Assembly: GCA_034006035.1 (NCBI GenBank)
Contig: JAVETN010000001.1
Coordinates: 280,532-344,531, forward strand
DNA length: 64,000 nt
From: Desulforegulaceae bacterium
GTDB lineage: Bacteria; Desulfobacterota; Desulfobacteria; Desulfobacterales; JACKCP01
Direction: 5' to 3'
Below are positions 3 to 36,292 of the stretch, in pieces. The stretch's first letter is position 1. Each line of letters begins with the position of its first letter. A program made the position numbers and the translations under genes. The notes under the pieces were generated by a model. It worked only from the letters and a program-made list of their open reading frames with translations. It made no database searches and was not told the origin of the DNA.

Positions 3-2657
3 ACCTATGGTCTTAATTTTACTGAAGGCAAGGTTATGTGGAAAGGTTCATACGGTAATGACAAAGATATAACAGACAGGGTTCAATCAGGAAAGCTTGG
101 CGGCTGGCTTGATATGCGAGATGAAACAATCCCTAAATTCAGATCTGATCTTGAAGCAGTTACAAGCGAAATGATCTGGCAGATAAATCTTGTTCATAGT
201 CAGGGAGCAGGTGAAAGTTATTTTGACACAGAGCTTAAAGGAGAATACAAGGCTGATGATTTGTTATGGCTTTCAACTCTTGATTTCGGAGAAAGGATTG
301 ATTATTCAAAGGATTTTAAAATCTGGGTTGAAAATTCTTCAGTAGAACCTGCTGAATATGAAGATTATGAAGTTGATATGGGGATTTCCACAGCCGAAAT
401 TTCAAATTTCAGGGGAAGTGTTTTAGGAACACCTGACAATTATCCTCCTTTTGTTTATAAGTTTACAGTCGCTGAATCTGGAATGGTGGACAATCTTCAA
501 TCACCAGATGATCCTGTTATTTTGTGGGAAAAATATTCCAATGAAGGAATCAGGCTTAAAAGCGGGTATTCTGAAATTAATGCCGGAACTATAAATGTTG
601 ATTCATCAGCCACTCCTCATTCACCGGGTATCTCATTTGATATAGGAACCGGTTCTCTTGTTGCAGGAAATACTTTTAGTATAAATACAAATAAATTTGC
701 CCAGGTAGATTCCCTTGAAATGACGGTTGATAAAAAAGGAATTTTAAGCCAGCAAAAGTACACTTTCAAAGTTGTTCAGGCAGGAGATCCTTTAACAAAA
801 GAGATTTCAGGAGAAGTAGGTATAGATCCCATAAAAATTGAATGGTCAAATGGGGCTGGAAAAACAGGAAGTTTTACCCTGGATCCTCTTGATCCATATT
901 TTGTACCTCTTGAAACCGAAATAGATGGAATGAGGTTTCGCTTTAATTCAGGAACAATGATTAAAGGGGATTTATTTGTTGTAACTACCGATGAAAAAGG
1001 TGTTCCAACTCTTGAAGATCAAACCGATTATAAGTGGACTTTAAAAACCTTTGCAGAGGAATTCAATAAGAATGTAAAGGGGGTAAGAGCAATTGTTACT
1101 CCTGTAAATCAGCTTTCTCTTTCTCCAGACACAGCTGGTTTTGAAATTTCTGACTTAAAACGAAGTGGGAATATTCACCTTCCAGATACAAGGGTAAGTA
1201 TTCACAATCATAACTCCCTTAGGGCTTTACAGGAAGATATTGTTGTTACAAGGGATTCAAACGGCCATTGGACAATGTCTGGAATAACTGAAAAACAATA
1301 TTTGAATGCATCTATTGTTCCGTCTACCCTTGATGTTAAACAAACAGGGGGCGCAGCAGCTGCAACTGACTCAATATATAGTTTTGAAGTTACCCGGGGA
1401 GGCGTTATTGGAACAGACGAAGTTATAATAAACTGGTCAAATGCGGATAACGGAACAAATGGTACAATTACCCTGACACCTTCTTTAGATGTTCCTTCTT
1501 CACCCGGAGTTGATGGTATGGATCTTGATTTTGCAGCAGGCGGACGTTTGTATGAGGGCGATAAGTTTACCATGGAAACCGATGCTGCAGGTAATGCATC
1601 AGTCAATCAGGTTCCCCATGACAAAGGTTTTGGAATAGATCTTACAGGAAATGGAATAAAGGACATTGACATAGACTTTATAATTCCTGTTCAGGGGGAA
1701 GGTAGTTTTTCCTTTAGTCTTACTCCAGATCAATCTGAATTTAGTTATGCTTTTTCAGATAATCAGTCTTCCGGGCCGGGAATTATGGCTGCAGCAGGTA
1801 TAAATACTTTTTTTACAGGTGCAGACATAAAAACAATGAAGGTAAATTCTGTTTTATCCGATGTTAACAATATTGCCGCCTCAACTATTAACTCAGTTGA
1901 AAGGGAAGTTGTGTCTTCAGATAAAAAAGTTTATTCTCCTATTGTAATAAAAGAAGGAACAAATAACTTTATCAGCTTTTCAGAGGGTGACAGCAAAGTT
2001 CTTTCAGCCAAAATAAAGCCGTCTTTATCAGGCGGTGCTTATAAAAATGAAAAAGAACTTGATATTCTTGCCGCAGATATTGAAAAGGCCCTTGAAGATT
2101 CAAGTTATTATGGAATTGATTATAAAGTAACTTACAATAAAGAAACCCAGGTTTTTGATATAACCCAGAAAAGAGGGGCAGTTGAAAAGGAAATAACTTT
2201 TCATTGGAACCTAAGTTCCATGGGCGATATCCTTGGTTTTGATCCCGGAGATTCCCAGATCAAACCTCCTGTGGATATTGCAGAAGGGGATTTGTCAAAA
2301 AGTGACAACTCAAATGCAATGAATCTTCTTCAGGTTCAAGATCTTCAGCTTTCAATTTCACAATGGGCATATCAAAGAGGGAAAGCTGCTTTTTCAGAGC
2401 CTGTAAAGGCCTCAATAGAAGGTTATTACAGGGGAATGGTAGGCGGGCTTGGTGTAAAGGCTGCAAGCATAGAAAGAGGTTTTGATTTTTCAAAGACAAT
2501 GGTGGAAAGGCTTACCCAGGACAGAGATACTGTTTCAGGAGTTTCTCTTGATGAAGAAATGATTAGTCTTATTAAATATCAGCATGCATATACAGTTGCA
2601 TCAAAGCTTTTATCGGTATCCGATGAAATGCTTCAGACCCTTGTTAGCATGAGATAA
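3..2657 (+). CDS. flgK: Flagellar hook-associated protein 1 (FlgK), 5'-truncated by the window edge; unusually large
   Basis: The frame is open from nt 3 (TYGLNFTEGKV precedes the listed ATG at 36), so the N-terminus lies upstream. The central GKLGGWLDMRDETIPKFRSDLEAVTSEMIWQINLVHSQGAG and C-terminal EEMISLIKYQHAYTVASKLLSVSDEMLQTLVSMR are FlgK-type segments. flgL starts 9 nt downstream. Confidence 0.9.
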   Translation, partial: TYGLNFTEGKVMWKGSYGNDKDITDRVQSGKLGGWLDMRDETIPKFRSDLEAVTSEMIWQINLVHSQGAGESYFDTELKGEYKADDLLWLSTLDFGERIDYSKDFKIWVENSSVEPAEYEDYEVDMGISTAEISNFRGSVLGTPDNYPPFVYKFTVAESGMVDNLQSPDDPVILWEKYSNEGIRLKSGYSEINAGTINVDSSATPHSPGISFDIGTGSLVAGNTFSINTNKFAQVDSLEMTVDKKGILSQQKYTFKVVQAGDPLTKEISGEVGIDPIKIEWSNGAGKTGSFTLDPLDPYFVPLETEIDGMRFRFNSGTMIKGDLFVVTTDEKGVPTLEDQTDYKWTLKTFAEEFNKNVKGVRAIVTPVNQLSLSPDTAGFEISDLKRSGNIHLPDTRVSIHNHNSLRALQEDIVVTRDSNGHWTMSGITEKQYLNASIVPSTLDVKQTGGAAAATDSIYSFEVTRGGVIGTDEVIINWSNADNGTNGTITLTPSLDVPSSPGVDGMDLDFAAGGRLYEGDKFTMETDAAGNASVNQVPHDKGFGIDLTGNGIKDIDIDFIIPVQGEGSFSFSLTPDQSEFSYAFSDNQSSGPGIMAAAGINTFFTGADIKTMKVNSVLSDVNNIAASTINSVEREVVSSDKKVYSPIVIKEGTNNFISFSEGDSKVLSAKIKPSLSGGAYKNEKELDILAADIEKALEDSSYYGIDYKVTYNKETQVFDITQKRGAVEKEITFHWNLSSMGDILGFDPGDSQIKPPVDIAEGDLSKSDNSNAMNLLQVQDLQLSISQWAYQRGKAAFSEPVKASIEGYYRGMVGGLGVKAASIERGFDFSKTMVERLTQDRDTVSGVSLDEEMISLIKYQHAYTVASKLLSVSDEMLQTLVSMR
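456..1592 (+). repeat. Three copies of a ~75-80-aa protein module inside FlgK (aa 141-220, 242-322, 448-519 of the listed ORF)
   Basis: Aligned by eye: YKFTVAESG..ILWEKYS..GISFDIGTGSLVAGNTFSINT / YTFKVVQAG..KIEWSNG..GMRFRFNSGTMIKGDLFVVTT / YSFEVTRGG..IINWSNA..GMDLDFAAGGRLYEGDKFTMET. Confidence 0.7.
1944..2243 (+). repeat. Single copy in FlgK of the ~100-aa module that is tandemly repeated in FlgL
   Basis: FlgK aa 637-736, VIKEGTNNFISFSEGD..GGAYKNEKELDILAADIEKAL..GIDYKVTYNKETQVFDI..ITFHWNLSSMGDILGFD, carries the same ordered landmarks as the FlgL modules (EGxNxxIxF, Y-x3-LAxxIE, IDYxVxY-x2-T, W-N/S, LGFD). Confidence 0.7.
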
Positions 2658-2666
2658 GGGGGAGAT

Positions 2667-5321
2667 ATGAGAATAGCTTCAAAAACAATTTATGAGTTAC
2701 AAAAAAATCAGTTGGGCAGTCTTTATAAAAACCTTGCTAAAAACAATAGTATTGTTGCTACTGGTAAAAGAATAAATAAAATTTCAGACGATCCAGTGGG
2801 TCTTACCCAGGTTTTAAATTTTAAGTCAGGTGTAAGTTATCTTTCACAAATTGATACAAATATTGAAAATGGGGTAACCTGGCTGAGGTCTGGTGAAACA
2901 GCAATAAGCAGTGTGGAAGATTTGACTCTGGAAATGAAAACCCTTGCACTTAAGCTTAAAAATGATTCGGTTAATGCCGGTCAGAGAAAGGAAGCAGTAA
3001 ACCGGGTAAATGCAGTACTTGCAGAACTTGTAAATTTAGGAAACACCCAGAGCAAAGGGGAATATATATTTTCCGGGAATAAAACAAATGTTCAACCTAT
3101 TGTTCCAGATGACTTGAATAATCCTCAGAGTATCAAATATAATGGTGATGAATTTTCATATCAGGTGAAAATTTCTCAGACAGATACAGTGGAAGTAGGA
3201 CATAAAGGCTCTGAAGTTTTTTGGGATGATCAGGTTGTTGTTGACTCAACAAATAATTCAATAGATTTTAAAGAAACCATAAGAGGCGGATTTAAAGTTG
3301 GCAATATAAAAGCAGGGGAATCTCTTAAAAACGATCAGGTCAAGTTAGAGGTCAAAAATTACGAGGCCATTGACAAAGGTAGCTTTGAACTGGCTCCTCT
3401 CCAATTTGTTTGGAACAGAGATCTTAAAGAGTGGAAGGTGAATAATGATCCAGGTTATGGTCTTCCTGAAACAATTAAAGGTACAGAAGATGCCTTTGAT
3501 CTTGATCTTGATAAAGACGGATTCGCAGATATAGAAGTAAGGCTTACCCAGGGAGCTGAACATGACGAATATGTTGAGTTTTCCCTTGAGCCCCATGATA
3601 TTGAAATTAAGGCTGAAATTCCAGATGGAACCTATTCAAGGGAAAAACTTGCCCTGGCTGTTGGAAACGCCCTTACAAAAGCCTCCGAAGAAAACGGATA
3701 CAAACTTGATTATAAAGCCGTTTATAGCAAGGAAACAAAAAAGTATTCAATTAGCTATGATGAAAATTCATTTGACGGATATATAAAAACAGACTTTTTG
3801 TGGACAACAGGCGAAAATTCCGGACGCAGCATAGGAACTGACCTTGGATTTGATATTTCAGATACAAAATTTGAACCGGCAGTAAGTGATAACAGGCTTG
3901 GAAAAATAATTCAGATCGGCGTAAATGACACCATGAATTTTTCAGTTGACGGTGGCACTACATTTCAAACAATTATTGTTCCTCCAGGTAAATACAGCAA
4001 TGAAGAGCTTGCTGAAGAAATTGAAAACCAGATGAAGCTTGCTGTAGGAAACATAGACTTTAATGATAAGTTTGAAGTGAAATTTAACAGTAAAGATGTA
4101 AGGTTTGAGTTTGATGCCTCAAATACATTTCCAGGTTCAGTAGACCTTGAACTTTATTGGAATAGCGGCCCCCAGGATCTTGGCCGCACCCTTGGATTTC
4201 CTGTTTACACAGATGATACAGGAAGTCTTGAATATAAGGGTTTGAGTTTTGCTCCAAAGGCAGAAATTGAAGAAGGAGTAAATGATACAATAGATTTTGC
4301 TCTTGACGGAACACCTTACTCTGTAACCATACCAGCAGATGATTATTCTCTTGACGATCTTGCTCTTCAAATAAAAAAAACAATGATGCTTGAAACAGGA
4401 AATGAAAACCTTGATGTAGCCTTTGATTCAAATTCAGGAGAAATTAAATTTGACGCTTCAGGCAGTGGAGTAGCAGTTTTTGAACTTTTATGGAGTTCAG
4501 GCCTAAATTCTTCAAAATCTGCAGCAGAAGTTCTTGGCTTTGATCCAACTATAGACAGCACTGCTGCACTTGATTATTCAGGAACAAATCTTCCCCTTGG
4601 AGTTGAAATAATTGAAGGTGTAAATGACAGAGTTAATTTCAGGGAGTTGCCTCAAAACGGTGAGTTTTCTCCACAGCTTTCATTTACAATCAAACCTGGG
4701 AATTATACTGGAAAAGAACTGGCTGAACATGTGGAATTTCAAATGGAACAGGCATCTGCAGCAGAAGGCCACAATATTGACTATACTGTGAGTTATGATT
4801 CAAAAACCCATCAATATAAATTCAGGGAAAACGGCTCAAAGTTAAATGAAATTCAGTTTTTATGGAACTCAGGCTTGGACAGGCCGATTTCAGAAGGGGG
4901 AACAGGGCAAAGTGCTGCTGTAACCCTTGGGTTTGATCAAAACAAAAATCATAGTGCAGTTTTAACAAATACAAGTACTGAAGAAGTTTCCTGGGGACTT
5001 TTTGATACCCTTGTTGATTTTAAAGAATATCTTGAAAACAATGATATTGACGGGATAAACAGGACGCTTACAAGACTTGACTCTCATTATGAAAAACAAT
5101 TAAGTCAGGTTGCCAAAATTGGAATGAAAGAGTCAAGACTGGTAACAAGACAGTCAATTGTTTCTAATCTTTCATTCAGATATGAAGAAAACAGGGCTCA
5201 GATTGAAGAAGCCGATATTGTGAAGGCGATTTCTGATCTAATGGCTTCTGAAACTGCTTATCAGGCATCTTTGGCTTCTTCAGCAAGAGTGATGAGGTTA
5301 AGTCTTGCTGATTATATTTAA
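2667..5321 (+). CDS. flgL: Flagellar hook-associated protein 3 (FlgL), 884 aa, with a ~580-aa repetitive insert
   Basis: The N-terminus MRIASKTIYELQKNQLGSLYKNLAKNNSIVATGKRINKISDDPVG is a flagellin-N-type helix. The C-terminus KAISDLMASETAYQASLASSARVMRLSLADYI is a flagellin-C-type helix. A GGGGGAG SD lies at 2658-2664, and the gene directly follows flgK. Confidence 0.9.
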   Translation: MRIASKTIYELQKNQLGSLYKNLAKNNSIVATGKRINKISDDPVGLTQVLNFKSGVSYLSQIDTNIENGVTWLRSGETAISSVEDLTLEMKTLALKLKNDSVNAGQRKEAVNRVNAVLAELVNLGNTQSKGEYIFSGNKTNVQPIVPDDLNNPQSIKYNGDEFSYQVKISQTDTVEVGHKGSEVFWDDQVVVDSTNNSIDFKETIRGGFKVGNIKAGESLKNDQVKLEVKNYEAIDKGSFELAPLQFVWNRDLKEWKVNNDPGYGLPETIKGTEDAFDLDLDKDGFADIEVRLTQGAEHDEYVEFSLEPHDIEIKAEIPDGTYSREKLALAVGNALTKASEENGYKLDYKAVYSKETKKYSISYDENSFDGYIKTDFLWTTGENSGRSIGTDLGFDISDTKFEPAVSDNRLGKIIQIGVNDTMNFSVDGGTTFQTIIVPPGKYSNEELAEEIENQMKLAVGNIDFNDKFEVKFNSKDVRFEFDASNTFPGSVDLELYWNSGPQDLGRTLGFPVYTDDTGSLEYKGLSFAPKAEIEEGVNDTIDFALDGTPYSVTIPADDYSLDDLALQIKKTMMLETGNENLDVAFDSNSGEIKFDASGSGVAVFELLWSSGLNSSKSAAEVLGFDPTIDSTAALDYSGTNLPLGVEIIEGVNDRVNFRELPQNGEFSPQLSFTIKPGNYTGKELAEHVEFQMEQASAAEGHNIDYTVSYDSKTHQYKFRENGSKLNEIQFLWNSGLDRPISEGGTGQSAAVTLGFDQNKNHSAVLTNTSTEEVSWGLFDTLVDFKEYLENNDIDGINRTLTRLDSHYEKQLSQVAKIGMKESRLVTRQSIVSNLSFRYEENRAQIEEADIVKAISDLMASETAYQASLASSARVMRLSLADYI
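3243..4934 (+). repeat. Tandem array of ~95-110-aa modules in FlgL: four clear copies (aa 299-396, 416-511, 534-626, 647-756) plus one degenerate copy (aa 193-298)
   Basis: Recurrent ordered landmarks are GVNDTMNF/GVNDTIDF/GVNDRVNF; YSNEELAEEIENQM/YSLDDLALQIKKTM/YTGKELAEHVEFQM/YSREKLALAVGNAL; LDYKAVY/IDYTVSY; LYWNSG/LLWSSG/FLWNSG/FLWTTG. The LGF landmark recurs at aa 393, 509, 623 and 753. Confidence 0.8.
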
Positions 5322-5519: not shown

Positions 5520-6512
5520 ATGAAGTTAAAGGGTAAGAAAGTTCTTGTAACAGGGGCTGATGGGTTCATAGGCTCCCATCTTTGCGAGCTTCTTCTTGAA
5601 AAAGGTTGTAATTTAAGGGCCTTGTCTCAGTATAATTCTTTTAATTCCTGGGGCTGGCTTGAAGATATTGACAGGTTAAGCGAAATTGAGGTTGTTTCAG
5701 GAGATATAAGAGATAATTATTTTATAAAAAAGATAACTGAAGGTATTGATGTTATTTTTCATCTTGCCGCACTTATTGCAATTCCATTTTCATATCTTGC
5801 CCCCCAGAGTTATATTGATACAAATATTACAGGAACCTTGAATATATGCCAGGCAGCTCTTGGTAACAATTGTATGAAAGTTGTTCATACTTCAACTTCT
5901 GAAGTTTACGGAACAGCTGATTATGTTCCAATTGATGAGGGCCATCCTTTAAAACCCCAGTCCCCATATTCTGCTTCAAAAATAGGAGCTGATTCAATTG
6001 CCTGGAGTTTTTATAGATCCTTTGAGCTTCCTGTTTCCATTGCCCGTCCATTCAATGCTTTTGGTCCAAGACAATCTGCAAGAGCTATTATTCCAACAAT
6101 AATAACCCAGCTTTTAAAGGGTGAAAAACAACTTATACTTGGAGACCTTTCTCCAACCAGGGATCTTAATTTTGTAAAAGATACTTGTCTTGGCCTTATT
6201 GCAGTTGCTGAATCTGATGAAACTTCAGGAGAATTCCTAAACATTGGATCAGGAAGGGAAATTTCCATAGGAGCTCTTGTTGATTTAATTCAGGAAAAAA
6301 TGGGAACAAAGGCAGAAATTGTTCAGGCAAAGGATAGGATAAGACCTAAAGGTTCTGAAGTTTACAGGCTTTGCTGTGATAATACTAAATTAAAAAAACT
6401 TACAGGATTTAGTCCAAAAACAGGGCTTGAAGAAGGGATTAAAATAACAGCAAACTGGTTTTCAAATCCAGCCAACCTTGAGAATTATAAAACTGAAATT
6501 TATAATCTGTGA
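5520..6512 (+). CDS. NAD-dependent nucleotide-sugar epimerase/4,6-dehydratase (extended SDR)
   Basis: Rossmann motif VLVTGADGFIGSHL and catalytic YSASK (YxxxK). The segment SQYNSFNSWGWLED is one I associate with the dehydratase clade found in legionaminic/nonulosonic-acid cassettes. An AGGGAG SD lies upstream. Confidence 0.8.
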   Translation: MKLKGKKVLVTGADGFIGSHLCELLLEKGCNLRALSQYNSFNSWGWLEDIDRLSEIEVVSGDIRDNYFIKKITEGIDVIFHLAALIAIPFSYLAPQSYIDTNITGTLNICQAALGNNCMKVVHTSTSEVYGTADYVPIDEGHPLKPQSPYSASKIGADSIAWSFYRSFELPVSIARPFNAFGPRQSARAIIPTIITQLLKGEKQLILGDLSPTRDLNFVKDTCLGLIAVAESDETSGEFLNIGSGREISIGALVDLIQEKMGTKAEIVQAKDRIRPKGSEVYRLCCDNTKLKKLTGFSPKTGLEEGIKITANWFSNPANLENYKTEIYNL

Positions 6513-6677
6513 AATTATTCAAGTTTTATTTCGAAAAAAATTAAAAATTTAAATAAAATCCCTATTAAGGGTTTGTTTTTTGTAAATAATCTGGAAATCT
6601 AGAAATATCAGTGGTATATCAACTAAAGAAACAATGAATTGATTTTAACTTTCAGGCATTTTACCGGGGGAGATTTA

Positions 6678-7328
6678 ATGAGAAGAACAATTTATCTTGT
6701 TGGAGGCGGGGGGCATTGCGTTTCAGCAATTGATGTAATTGAGCAGGAGGATAAGTATAAAATCGGCGGTATTTTGGATTTGCCTGAAAAAGTAGGGCAA
6801 AAGGTTCTTGGATATGAAATTATTGGAGATGATTCCCAAATAAAAAAATATGCAAGAACAGATAACTATTTTCTTATCACCATGGGTCATATCAAAACTT
6901 CTAAAAAAAGAAGACAGCTTGCTGAAATGATTTCTGCTTTTGGAGGCAGGCTTGCAACTATTATTTCTCCATCAGCTTATGTTTCAAAGCATTCACGGGT
7001 GGGTGAAGGGACAATAGTAGGACATTCATCTAATATTTCTGCTGGGGTAAGTGTTGGAATTAATTGTATAATAAACACAAAAGCCGTTATTGAGCACAAT
7101 GTGAGACTAGGAGATTATTGTCATATTTCCACAGGAGCGGTTCTTAATGGAGAATCAAGGCTTGAAAACGGAGTTTTCCTTGGAAGTAATTCAATGGTTA
7201 GACAAGATGTAAGAATTGGTGAAGGAAGTGTTATAGGTGCCGGGGTAAGTGTTTTTAATGATCTTCCCTCAAGGTCATATTTAAAATTTCCAAGGCAGAT
7301 TTTTTACCCAGAAGACAACCAAAAGTGA
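6678..7328 (+). CDS. NeuD/PglD-family sugar acyltransferase (left-handed beta-helix)
   Basis: The N-terminal YLVGGGGHCVSAIDVI domain is followed by hexapeptide repeats (GEGTIVGHSSNISAGVSVGINCIINTKAVIEHNVRLGDYCHISTGAVLNGESRL). Start moved from the listed TTG 6639 to ATG 6678, which has a GGGGGA SD 6 nt upstream. Confidence 0.8.
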   Translation: MRRTIYLVGGGGHCVSAIDVIEQEDKYKIGGILDLPEKVGQKVLGYEIIGDDSQIKKYARTDNYFLITMGHIKTSKKRRQLAEMISAFGGRLATIISPSAYVSKHSRVGEGTIVGHSSNISAGVSVGINCIINTKAVIEHNVRLGDYCHISTGAVLNGESRLENGVFLGSNSMVRQDVRIGEGSVIGAGVSVFNDLPSRSYLKFPRQIFYPEDNQK

Positions 7329-15397: not shown

Positions 15398-17794
15398 TTA
15401 ATAGAGTTTGAATTCAGCATAGCCATAGTTATTTAAATTATGTTCTAGATCCCAAAGGTCCATCACAACGTTTGTAACCATTTTGTCTTCTAGAAAATTC
15501 CAGTTGTTAATGTTAATAGCAAATTCTAATGATTTTCCAGAACTTTTTAATTCATAAGGTTTATCACTTAGGAATGAGTTCTTTTCATCAATTGATAATT
15601 TAGAATCATCATATGACCCGTCTACATGAAGATCTAAGTCTTTAGGGTCATCATATTGATAATTGTAATCAAAAGGTTTGTAGTAGTCTATATTTATATA
15701 AAAATTTGGGGAAACTTCCTTTTCATCATAAACATTAATTAAAAAGTTTAATTTGCTAGGTTCTAAGCTTTTAGCCATTTTTATTTCAATACCAAAATCT
15801 TTGAATACTGGAGAAATTTCTTTCCAGTCGTCAATTTTGCCGTCAATTGTTATTGAAGCTTTTTTTAGCTCTTTTGCAGGTATTTTCCACTCATAATCAA
15901 TTTCTTCTAAAGAATCTTTGGTAAGCTCAGGTGTTCCTGGTTCATATAAATCGGTTTCATTGTTAATTAGCTTTCTTAAATCAGTTTTTCCTTTAAAAAA
16001 ATCTGCAATAGTAAGTTCTTTTTCTCTAGCAAATGGATTTGGTTTGAACTCTGTCTCATATAATTCATGGGTAGCTGTGTAATATGCATAATCACCTATT
16101 ACTTTATATTTTTGTGAGTCTTTTTTTCTTTTATTGTCTACAAGAGTAAAAGATGCACTAGAATCAGACAGCACAGTTTCAAGATTTGATAATGTTACCC
16201 CTGCCAATTGTTTAAGCATTTCAATTTCAAGAGTGTTTGTTATATCAAAGGCATGCTGTGCTCTTGAATTTTTTGAAGGATCTGCGGGTAGTTCAATTCT
16301 ATTAATTGCTTCTTTAAATAACTTTGAAGCATTTAAAATATTTGTTTCTAAACTTGCTAGTTCATCATTTTTAGATTCTGAAAATGTTAGTAATTTTGGA
16401 TTGTTGTTGAAAAAAAGTTTATCTGCTAAATCTGAATCAATTAAATAATCATCATAGGTTAGATAATCATATTTTTCACCGTTTAATTCAAACTCCCAGT
16501 TTTCTACTTCAAGATTATGTGCTTGTAATAGATTTACACAAGCAAGTCCGCCTTCAACAAAAGCATGGATTAATAAAACATCTGTTTTATCAAACCTTAT
16601 AGTGTCAAATCCTGTAAGACTTAAAGTGAAAAATTCATCATCTGAAATTTTTATTTGATTAAGCTCATCTTTAAGAAGCTCAAGTTTTTTTTCAATGCTT
16701 TTAATTAAACTTTCGATGTTTTCTTTTCCTGAAGCTGTAAAAAGTGTTTTGACAAACTCTGAAATTTTTTCATTGATTCCCTCATCATTTAGATCAAAAA
16801 TGTCAAATTCCTTTTTTATCTTATCAACAAAAGGGTCATTATAAAGATTCAGAATAATAGCTATGGAGTTTATTAGGTGGGCTTCAGGTTCATCAGGCAT
16901 AGTATTCATAAAGTGTAGAAACTCATCAAGACTGCTTTCTATGTCTTCAAGCCTTAAATCGGTTTCATCTTTTTCAAATACTTTAATAAAATCTATTAAA
17001 GCCTTTTTTGCATCTGCAAGTGAGCCTGTTGGTTTAAAGCCTTTTTCAGCTGCAGTGATAGCTTCTGACAATGAATCTTTAGTCTTTTTAGCCCAGTCTT
17101 TGCTAGACTTATTGTTAGTTGTATATTCTTCTACTGCTGAATTAAGAGACTTTGCCTTATTGTTGAGTTGGCCGTTTTTTATGTCTTCAGACATCTCAGC
17201 CATTAACTTTCCCAGATCTTCAACTTCTTTAAGCATTTGAGAAATTCCGGCAAGAAGAAGGGTGTATTTTTTTTCAATCTCAGTTTTGGCCGTACCCTCA
17301 TCTTCTGGATCAAAAGGCATGACTGAAGTAATATCAGTAGTGTCATCTCCGACAAGCTGGCCTATTTTTTTATTTGAGGCTTTAATAATTTCAGGTTTTA
17401 GACCACCTGAATTTATAGCATCTTGTACAGCAATTTCTGTAAGCGGAGTGATTGAAGCTTTGGTTGTAGTTGAAGCATCTGCAATTGCAGCTCTTAGTTC
17501 AGTTTTTAGCTCAACTTTTTCGCCTGTTGCTTCATCTTTGTATTTTCCGCCTTTAGCTATTACAAGTACAGGCCCTGAATATGCTAAGTCAATTTTATAA
17601 TTACCACTTAAATCTGTAGTTGTGCTGCCAAGTTTTTCACCTGGTTTACCTTCATTGGTTATTTTGTAAAATGTTATTTCTGAGCCACTTAAAGGTCCTT
17701 TAGAGGCAACTCCTGATACTGAGGAAGATGAGGAGTCAGAACTGCTGCTAGAAGAGCACCCCAAAACCCAGGCTAGAAGAATTGCAATAATCAA
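15398..17794 (-). CDS. Large putative surface lipoprotein; N-terminus disrupted or phase-shifted relative to the upstream ATGs
   Basis: A lipobox (LLAWVLG-C) is followed by a poly-Ser linker. The beta-sandwich-like segment KGPLSGSEITFYKITNEG..STTTDLSGNYKIDL follows, then a long helical middle. The C-terminal ITIDGKIDDWKE is a CBM9/glucodextranase-like motif. Only a TTG start (17794) is in frame; see findings. Confidence 0.65.
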   Translation of the reverse strand: MIIAILLAWVLGCSSSSSSDSSSSSVSGVASKGPLSGSEITFYKITNEGKPGEKLGSTTTDLSGNYKIDLAYSGPVLVIAKGGKYKDEATGEKVELKTELRAAIADASTTTKASITPLTEIAVQDAINSGGLKPEIIKASNKKIGQLVGDDTTDITSVMPFDPEDEGTAKTEIEKKYTLLLAGISQMLKEVEDLGKLMAEMSEDIKNGQLNNKAKSLNSAVEEYTTNNKSSKDWAKKTKDSLSEAITAAEKGFKPTGSLADAKKALIDFIKVFEKDETDLRLEDIESSLDEFLHFMNTMPDEPEAHLINSIAIILNLYNDPFVDKIKKEFDIFDLNDEGINEKISEFVKTLFTASGKENIESLIKSIEKKLELLKDELNQIKISDDEFFTLSLTGFDTIRFDKTDVLLIHAFVEGGLACVNLLQAHNLEVENWEFELNGEKYDYLTYDDYLIDSDLADKLFFNNNPKLLTFSESKNDELASLETNILNASKLFKEAINRIELPADPSKNSRAQHAFDITNTLEIEMLKQLAGVTLSNLETVLSDSSASFTLVDNKRKKDSQKYKVIGDYAYYTATHELYETEFKPNPFAREKELTIADFFKGKTDLRKLINNETDLYEPGTPELTKDSLEEIDYEWKIPAKELKKASITIDGKIDDWKEISPVFKDFGIEIKMAKSLEPSKLNFLINVYDEKEVSPNFYINIDYYKPFDYNYQYDDPKDLDLHVDGSYDDSKLSIDEKNSFLSDKPYELKSSGKSLEFAININNWNFLEDKMVTNVVMDLWDLEHNLNNYGYAEFKLY

Positions 17795-23416: not shown

Positions 23417-23493
23417 TGGTGTGCCCGGCGGGATTCGAACCCACGATTTCCGGCTTCGGAGGCCAGCGCCCTATCCAACTGGGCCACGGGCAC
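23417..23493 (-). tRNA. tRNA-Arg (anticodon CCG), CCA encoded
   Basis: A cloverleaf folds by hand: acceptor GTGCCCG/CGGGCAC, D-arm GCCC/GGGC, anticodon stem CTGGC/GCCGG with loop CT-CCG-AA, and T-arm GTGGG-TTCGAAT-CCCGC, ending ACCA. Confidence 0.93.
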
Positions 23494-34099: not shown

Positions 34100-34175
34100 G
34101 GGCCCATAGCTCAGCTGGAAGAGCCATCGGCTCATAACCGATAGGTCCCTGGTTCGAACCCAGGTGGGCCCACCA
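34100..34175 (+). tRNA. tRNA with CAT anticodon (elongator Met or lysidine-type Ile2), CCA encoded
   Basis: Acceptor GGGCCCA/TGGGCCC, D-arm GCTC/GAGC, anticodon stem ATCGG/CCGAT with loop CT-CAT-AA, and T-arm CCTGG-TTCGAAC-CCAGG. The G1-C72 pair and weak anticodon stem argue against an initiator. Confidence 0.9.
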
Positions 34176-35901: not shown

Positions 35902-36260
<359 letters not shown>

Positions 36261-36292
36261 TTTTTTTAACAATCAGGAATCAGGGGAAAAAT

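Follow-up and report, generated by a model that had tools for sequence, protein, structure and literature searches.

The 64,000-nucleotide stretch of a Desulforegulaceae metagenome-assembled genome (MAG) analysed here, referred to as the window, encodes a FlgL protein, a component of the junction between flagellar hook and filament, that is 884 amino acids (aa) long. Between its helical ends this protein carries an insert of 579 residues (aa 186-764), which contains a separate β domain, X, and four copies, M1-M4, of a module of ~110 aa, M. The insert has a net charge of -53, an isoelectric point (pI) of 4.3 and no Cys residues. The host is represented solely by a MAG, and its cultured relative is Desulforegula conservatrix. 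The features of the gene are as follows (HMM, hidden Markov model; i-E, independent E-value; AF2, AlphaFold2).

2667..5321, + strand: flgL, open reading frame (ORF) of 884 aa, stop codon counted in the coordinates
2667..3221, + strand: N-terminal D0/D1 region (aa 1-185), long helices and then β hairpins, with Flagellin_N
3225..3293, + strand: module-like first strands (aa 187-209, DDQVVVDSTNNSIDFKETIRGGF), seen with hhalign; HMM matches to profile positions 3-26 only
3294..3554, + strand: domain X (aa ~210-296), predicted all-β, its profile recurring in other FlgLs
3504-3530, + strand: DxDxDG-type loop DLDKDGFAD (aa 280-288) in domain X, by motif position
3555..3875, + strand: module copy M1 (aa ~297-403), HMM 102.9 bits, independent HMM i-E 2.3e-20, helix at aa 325-343
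3888..4223, + strand: module copy M2 (aa 408-519), HMM 91.1 bits, independent HMM i-E 1.3e-11, helix at aa 445-460
4245..4565, + strand: module copy M3 (aa 527-633), HMM 91.6 bits, independent HMM i-E 9.7e-17, helix at aa 562-577
4587..4958, + strand: module copy M4 (aa 641-764), best conserved of the four, HMM 120.7 bits, independent HMM i-E 2.1e-32, helix at aa 682-699
4959..5318, + strand: C-terminal D1/D0 helices (aa 765-884), AF2 helices at aa 778-790 and 794-875, second TIGR02550 stretch, sub-threshold Flagellin_C

The FlgL equivalog model TIGR02550 matches the protein with 215.2 bits (E 1.8e-63; curated cutoff 127.2), while all flagellin models score far under their own cutoffs. The Pfam domain Flagellin_N covers aa 13-140 (56 bits, cutoff 26.6), and Flagellin_C covers aa 812-879 below threshold (18.5 bits vs. 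23). The gene starts at 2667, directly downstream of flgK, which ends at 2657. As the window begins inside flgK, the operon further upstream was read from a syntenic relative (L004) with a 78% identical FlgL, in which the gene order is fliK-flhB-flgF-flgG-flgA-flgH-flgI-flgJ-flgN-flgK(1126 aa)-flgL(884 aa). A Foldseek search with the full-length AF2 model (predicted local distance difference test, pLDDT, 85.3; predicted TM-score, pTM, 0.60; 49 FlgLs in the alignment) returned the flagellin of G. thiophilus (9au6) on top and also matched the FlgLs of Campylobacter jejuni, Xanthomonas campestris, L. pneumophila and Salmonella, the last of these (9go6) being aligned over 181-197 columns with root mean square deviations of 2.3-3.7. 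Because TIGR02550 scores above its cutoff, the gene lies behind flgK and the model matches solved FlgLs, the 884-aa protein is the bona fide FlgL (hook-associated protein 3, HAP3) of this organism. Both this identity and the enlargement had been claimed in an earlier note on the window, and the protein is indeed nearly three times as long as Salmonella FlgL (317 aa).

The same note had described an insert of ~580 aa bracketed by conserved helical ends, and we recovered this architecture, with ends of ~185 aa (N-terminal) and ~120 aa (C-terminal). AF2 places the N-terminal helices at aa 3-32, 43-97 and 104-125, and phmmer aligned this region with the FlgLs of L. pneumophila and Salmonella. Residues 1-217 were alignable to L. 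pneumophila FlgL, and the insert begins where that protein exits D1.

The four module copies are supported by three kinds of evidence. Smith-Waterman comparisons among M1-M4 gave z-scores of 9.9-21.9, and none of 300 shuffles matched the observed score, so that the internal repeats, whose significance the note had proposed to check, are far beyond chance. An HMM built independently, from 30 modules of distant FlgLs and none of the window's clade in order to avoid circularity, was run against 523 six-frame segments of the window. It found exactly four full copies in the flgL ORF; elsewhere it found one copy in the flgK ORF and a 23-position fragment in the region for which a fifth copy had been proposed. 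In the full-length AF2 model, each of M1-M4 is predicted to consist of strands, one helix of 16-19 residues and three strands. The array had been delimited as 3243-4934, which is exactly aa 193-756, and its four clear copies are real. The ordered landmarks described for it are present in all four as well, with the (L/F)(L/Y)W(N/S/T)(S/T)G motif at aa 377, 496, 607 and 731 and LGF at aa 393, 509, 623 and 754, the last of which had been placed at 753.

We found no tandem or long direct DNA repeat in the array region, only matches of ~20 nucleotides at the GVND and LLWNSG codons. Because there is no repeat at the DNA level, the array is neither a recent duplication nor an assembly artefact. The source being a MAG, an assembly or frame artefact nevertheless had to be considered, as had a filament-forming flagellin, since Pfam Flagellin_N is common to FlgL and flagellins. 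The full-length protein recurs, however, on independent contigs. It is 100% identical to the NCBI protein 'MAG: FlgL [Desulforegulaceae bacterium]', full-length orthologues at 52-79% identity exist in several Desulfobacteraceae and Thermodesulfobacteriota MAGs, and the FlgL of the cultured D. conservatrix (878 aa) is 39% identical over its full length. A search for related loci with the whole FlgL found two Desulfobacteraceae MAG loci, and one for contigs that encode the window protein yielded a single contig of 6.2 kb. The flagellin alternative is at odds with the model scores given above and with the canonical operon position behind flgN-flgK. Both possibilities are effectively refuted.

Fold, distribution and age of module M

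Folded alone by AF2 with 56 non-redundant modules in the alignment, M4 (aa 641-764) gave a pLDDT of 95.2 and a pTM of 0.87, and M is confidently predicted to be an independent fold of strands, helix and strands. Columns that vary little or not at all over the 56 modules hold Y, G, F, L, W, G, and F. Judged by residue type these are core positions and form no catalytic constellation, which points to a structural rather than a catalytic role; enzymatic activity of M would not be expected.

The earlier remark that the module was not recognisable as any named flagellin or HAP domain held against every resource searched. M had no match at threshold in Pfam-A or NCBIfam, its profile found nothing among PDB sequences, and Foldseek found nothing in the PDB at E ≤ 1e-3, the best matches there being a capsid chain of the virus PBCV-1 (8h2i_bG, E 9.2e-3) and C. 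jejuni FlgK (E 0.17). Neither by sequence profile nor by fold did M match the described flagellin outer domains (Flagellin_IN PF07196, Flagellin_D3, Ig-like D2/D3). Two more specific assignments were rejected. M is not the central part of TIGR02550, as isolated modules match no NCBIfam model at E ≤ 1, and it is not the 'foldit3-like' flagellin domain (PMC11532411), as the solved flagellins of enterohaemorrhagic and enteropathogenic E. coli (EHEC, EPEC) and of Achromobacter were unmatched by a single M.

When 1.84 billion cluster representatives (50% identity clusters) were searched exhaustively with the profile of M, at least 3,323 of them matched at E ≤ 1e-3, 832 at E ≤ 1e-10 and 105 at E ≤ 1e-30. 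We assigned host classes to the best 146 new representatives as follows.

55/146: FlgL-like hosts
61/146: hosts without a detectable flagellar terminus
14/146: giant flagellin-like hosts of ~1500-1700 aa, with partial M matches
10/146: FlgK hosts
6/146: FliD hosts

Spot checks with Pfam and NCBIfam concur with the flagellar classes. M is thus not specific to FlgL: it also occurs in FlgK, in FliD and in non-flagellar giants, and in part in giant flagellins. Hosts without flagellar termini comprise fragments and proteins of 1.8-5.4 thousand aa (kaa), some with Big, CHB_HEX_C, Laminin_G or FG-GAP domains. Among FlgLs the number of copies varies from one to six, the variation that the note had suggested looking for with a module search: one copy in proteins of 422-443 aa, two in proteins of 533-540 aa, three, four, and five to six in proteins of 908-1653 aa.

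Several large proteins without flagellar termini are rich in M, with 3 to >16 copies in P0079 (5374 aa), P0072 (2236 aa) and P0100, P0115, P0119, P0120 and P0123-P0126 (1.8-2.1 kaa). In the proteins of 1.8-2.1 kaa the copies are regularly spaced ~300-430 aa apart, and these proteins may represent a so far uncharacterised family of large, M-containing proteins. A Pfam scan of four M-rich giants (P0072, P0100, P0120, and P0144) gave no match for any of the four.

The copies within the array are old. Each module of the window is 47-76% identical to the copy at the same position in orthologues and 32-39% identical to its sister copies, and it is M1 that the first module of shorter FlgLs matches best. 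This positional orthology indicates that the duplications are ancient and long predate the window's clade. By region, the identity of M1 and M4 to 14 orthologues is as high as that of the D0/D1 core (41-86% for M4 and 43-81% for the N-terminal D0/D1). Such conservation at the level of the core argues for functional constraint on the modules rather than for a freely drifting hypervariable region.

Domain X, FlgK and neighbouring genes

The note had counted a degenerate fifth copy at aa 193-298. This region is not a copy, and the array has four copies rather than five. Pairwise comparison with M1-M4 gave it z-scores of just -0.2 to 3.5, and AF2 predicts it to be all-β, with eight strands in aa 189-293 and without the long helix of the module. 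When the 15 orthologous aa 193-298 regions were compared with the 56 modules using hhalign, only aa 188-209 (QVVVDSTNNSIDFKETIRGGF) aligned (probability 79%, E 1.5e-5, 22 columns). The stretch at aa 187-209 is therefore the only module-like part of the proposed copy, and it resembles the first strands of the module.

The remainder, X, is a distinct recurrent domain, separate from M. A profile of X identified it in 51 of 197 retrieved proteins; 46 of the 51 could be classified or were annotated, all as FlgL or FlgL-like, and the other five were unclassified. The profile had no match among PDB sequences. The placement of X takes two forms. Within the clade of the window, D1 and the 22-aa module-like strand precede it, and in many other FlgLs it interrupts the first module, with 'LLWxSG' on one side and the closing 'SIGxDLGF' strand on the other. 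Some FlgLs (P0014-P0016, P0053, P0056, and P0081) have two X domains, and in the D. conservatrix group a second X (aa ~506-579) takes the place of the window's M2 and M3. Lineages thus seem to have exchanged cassettes of outer domains. The 15 orthologues all share the first and last Asp of the DLDKDGFAD loop as well as its Asp-Gly pair, and the loop varies in distant X domains (e.g., DLDKDGISD and DVNDDGASD). From what is known of DxDxDG motifs, this suggests a putative structural Ca2+ site in X.

The FlgK encoded upstream also carries outer repeats, one of which is M.

36..2657, + strand: flgK, N-terminus cut by the window start, matched by TIGR02492 and by Pfam Flg_bbr_C and FlgK_D1; ~1126 aa at full length in relative L004
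1926..2264, + strand: single M copy in FlgK (aa ~631-743 of the partial ORF), HMM 73.5 bits, independent HMM i-E 9.5e-18
741-1025 (aa ~236-330) and 1386-1670 (aa ~451-545 of the partial ORF), + strand: clear copies of a ~90-aa repeat of FlgK's own, z = 13.4, 0/300 shuffles
~441-710: weaker third copy of the FlgK repeat, marginal (z about 3-4)

The M copy of FlgK is related to M1 and M4 of FlgL with Smith-Waterman z-scores of 11.4 and 11.9, respectively, and is kept in the FlgKs of two relatives (L001 and L002). The ~90-aa repeat differs from M and follows the pattern Y.F.V...G....I.WSN..G..G..TL ... G..F.F..G....GD.F...TD. On account of this internal repeat, FlgK too can be read from its sequence as a mosaic of repeated outer domains.

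Downstream of flgL, an AT-rich gap (GC content 0.29) is followed by two genes for sugar modification.

5520-6512, + strand: NAD-dependent sugar epimerase/dehydratase gene, directly downstream of flgL
6639-7328, + strand: PglD-like hexapeptide N-acetyltransferase gene, after the epimerase/dehydratase gene

Both are also found behind flgL in the 78% identical relatives L004 and L005, and they may be linked to glycosylation of flagellar proteins.

Elsewhere in the window we noted the following.

15398-17794, - strand: ORF of 798 aa between the genes for a major facilitator superfamily (MFS) transporter and a glycine-betaine-type ATP-binding cassette (ABC) substrate-binding protein
23417-23493, - strand: tRNA-Arg(CCG)
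34100-34175, + strand: tRNA-Met(CAT)
35905-36261, + strand: bacterial RNase P class A RNA, 316 bits

The 798-aa ORF had no Pfam-A match at E ≤ 1e-5. The three RNAs are ordinary housekeeping RNAs.

Comparison with known flagellar and viral proteins

Large FlgLs are known from C. jejuni and Helicobacter pylori (747-828 aa; PRK14692, PRK08412; 9gsx), in which a bulky exposed region is likewise inserted in D1, described as a 'bulky D2' for C. jejuni (PMC12221982). NCBIfam contains FlgL models of 749 and 827 positions, and size alone is therefore not novel. In the Foldseek search with our full model, the two C. jejuni chains 9gsx_A and 9gsx_B ranked second and third (E 2.2e-11 and 1.3e-10). However, PRK08412 matches the window FlgL only over aa 1-186 and PRK14692 only over aa 1-145, and 9gsx is absent from the 50 best Foldseek matches of a single M. 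Because these model matches end no later than the start of the insert and M found neither 9gsx among those 50 nor, by profile, any PDB sequence, the outer domains of the C. jejuni and H. pylori proteins are of a different kind. We found no report in the literature of a tandem array of a single module in Campylobacter or Helicobacter FlgL.

A parallel in arrangement is offered by the β-sandwich D2 domains of X. campestris FlgL and Burkholderia FlgK (5ziz and 4ut1; PMC6155364), exposed accessory domains of the same kind inserted in D1 of both proteins and proposed to reinforce the junction (PMC6155364). As in that pair, one domain type, M, is common to FlgL and FlgK of the window. X also sits at the D2 position and is predicted to be all-β with ~8 strands, compared with the 5+3 β-sandwich of the X. 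campestris type. M differs from these D2 domains in its helix of 16-19 residues and does not retrieve 5ziz or 4ut1, and the insert has five domains instead of one.

Multi-domain flagellins, such as the giant flagellins and that of G. thiophilus (D2-D5, 9au6), share with the window FlgL a D0/D1 core with a chain of extra globular domains. They are filament subunits present in thousands of copies, whereas FlgL and FlgK are junction proteins in 11 copies, and the domains of 9au6 were not among the top matches of a single M.

Outside the flagellar proteins, M showed weak similarity to Pfam DUF3383 (PF11863; phage structural proteins). Ten of the 56 M copies and two M-rich proteins matched it at positions ~121-192 of 493, and two FlgL homologues have a precomputed PF11863 match. 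DUF3383 is the seventh most frequent CDD domain in the hypervariable regions of flagellins (Eckhard et al., PMC5595980). All M matches stay below the gathering score, the best being E 4.8e-4 for a single M and 30.9 bits (gathering 34.9) for an M-rich protein, and they cover ~70 of the 493 profile positions, so that M would be related at most to a sub-domain of DUF3383 proteins. PHROG 19400 (function unknown) was matched by 12 of the 56 modules (best E 2.9e-6). The phage link stays weak, because tblastn with the M consensus against 50,697 phage genomes gave no match.

The best fold matches of M were giant-virus proteins in BFVD, A0A1V0CPH4 (E 1.4e-4, TM 0.70, 22% identity) and the PBCV-1 DUF5901 protein Q98583 (E 2e-3, TM 0.62), together with 8h2i_bG from the PDB, which as a capsid chain is a component of a large assembly. 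Their significance is borderline, they have no detectable sequence homology to M, and they are viral rather than flagellar. The likeness may reflect a simple α/β sandwich topology.

Possible roles of the insert at the hook-filament junction

We consider it most likely, by analogy with solved junctions, that the insert forms an acidic outer collar with a structural role, reinforcing or shielding the junction, and we give this reading a probability of roughly 60%. In the solved junctions of Salmonella and C. jejuni, 11 FlgL subunits lie over 11 FlgK subunits, with their D2 domains exposed to solvent (PMC12221982), as was also seen for FlgL D2 in PMC6155364. The D0/D1 core of the window FlgL would assemble into the same 11-subunit distal layer. 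The insert would have grown at the site that in other FlgLs is occupied by a small, exposed D2 domain, and would form five globular domains in a string, X followed by four M. With an M-bearing, enlarged FlgK below it, the junction is thus predicted to have a large outer collar of 11 x 5 FlgL domains plus the FlgK domains. Packing of these domains would be lateral, possibly by contacts of FlgL's M with the M of FlgK, and the acidic collar would stiffen, reinforce or shield the junction, at which the flexible hook transmits torque to the rigid filament. [quoted passage not shown] The lack of Cys and the pI of 4.3 are compatible with unfolded export through the flagellar type III channel. The earlier suggestion that the array decorates the junction surface agrees with the topology, as the insert sits at the exit from D1 and FlgL D2 is exposed in solved junctions; the exposure of the insert itself is deduced from that topology and those structures.

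Several observations weigh against a collar. The arrangement of the domains relative to each other is not confidently predicted (pTM 0.60), and to prefer a collar over floppy arms is conjecture. The presence of M in non-flagellar proteins of 1.8-5.4 kaa would fit a generic binding or spacer domain equally well. Finally, the D. conservatrix subgroup has other sequence in place of M2 and M3 (22% identity), in part the second X domain, and the exact array is therefore not indispensable.

That M occurs in giants without flagellar ends, some of them with Big, CHB_HEX_C, Laminin_G or FG-GAP domains, also raises the question of whether the array could serve to bind or adhere to ligands such as polysaccharides, minerals or cell surfaces rather than act as a mechanical collar. 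FliD at the filament tip mediates adhesion in other bacteria, and M is found on FliD as well. The strong acidity of the insert would fit such a role, as the strongly negative outer surface of the G. thiophilus flagellin was proposed to aid adhesion to minerals (PMC11532411). With ~11 FlgL subunits per flagellum, placed next to the hook, both copy number and location would nevertheless be poor for adhesion. Furthermore, the conserved columns of M make up a hydrophobic and glycine core with no conserved polar pocket, and M matched no lectin or carbohydrate-binding module (CBM) family. We therefore regard an adhesive array as unlikely. We think it quite improbable that the insert is functionally neutral, or merely an antigenic or phage-shielding filler in a hypervariable region expanded by duplication. 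Such a filler would account for the one to six copies among FlgLs and for the exchange of M2 and M3 in one subgroup, and the outer domains are generally the most variable parts of flagellins (PMC5595980, PMC11532411). It sits badly with modules that are as conserved within the clade as the assembly core, with the positional orthology kept since the old duplication and with the cost of synthesising 579 extra residues per subunit and exporting them by type III secretion.

A more far-reaching version of the collar reading is that M and X constitute an undescribed, widespread family of flagellar outer domains (in each of the four distal axial proteins, FlgK, FlgL, FliD and, in part, flagellin, and in the giants), which in Desulfobacterales would form, through homotypic M-M contacts between FlgK and FlgL, an ordered and possibly Ca2+-stabilised junction collar unseen in model organisms. 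We hold this version only tentatively and think it rather doubtful.

In the usual view, junction proteins are small adaptors that do not vary. The FlgL/FlgK pair described here has been roughly doubled or tripled in size by modular outer domains, on which purifying selection appears to act. What is new relative to known enlarged FlgLs and flagellins is an unnamed α/β module common to FlgK, FlgL, and FliD, and in part to giant flagellins; also distinctive are its tandem array with a lineage-specific copy number and a second recurrent β domain, X. If the domains turned out to be floppy filler, the finding would be only an item for cataloguing. To our knowledge, reinforcement of the junction by D2-type domains has been proposed and never tested, and the window offers a concrete case for the question of whether outer domains reinforce it. 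With its high-confidence model and a defined family, M would be a building block that can be annotated in FlgL, FlgK, FliD, and giant flagellins. The main value of the work lies in two undescribed families of flagellar outer domains and in a testable hypothesis of a junction collar that they would form.

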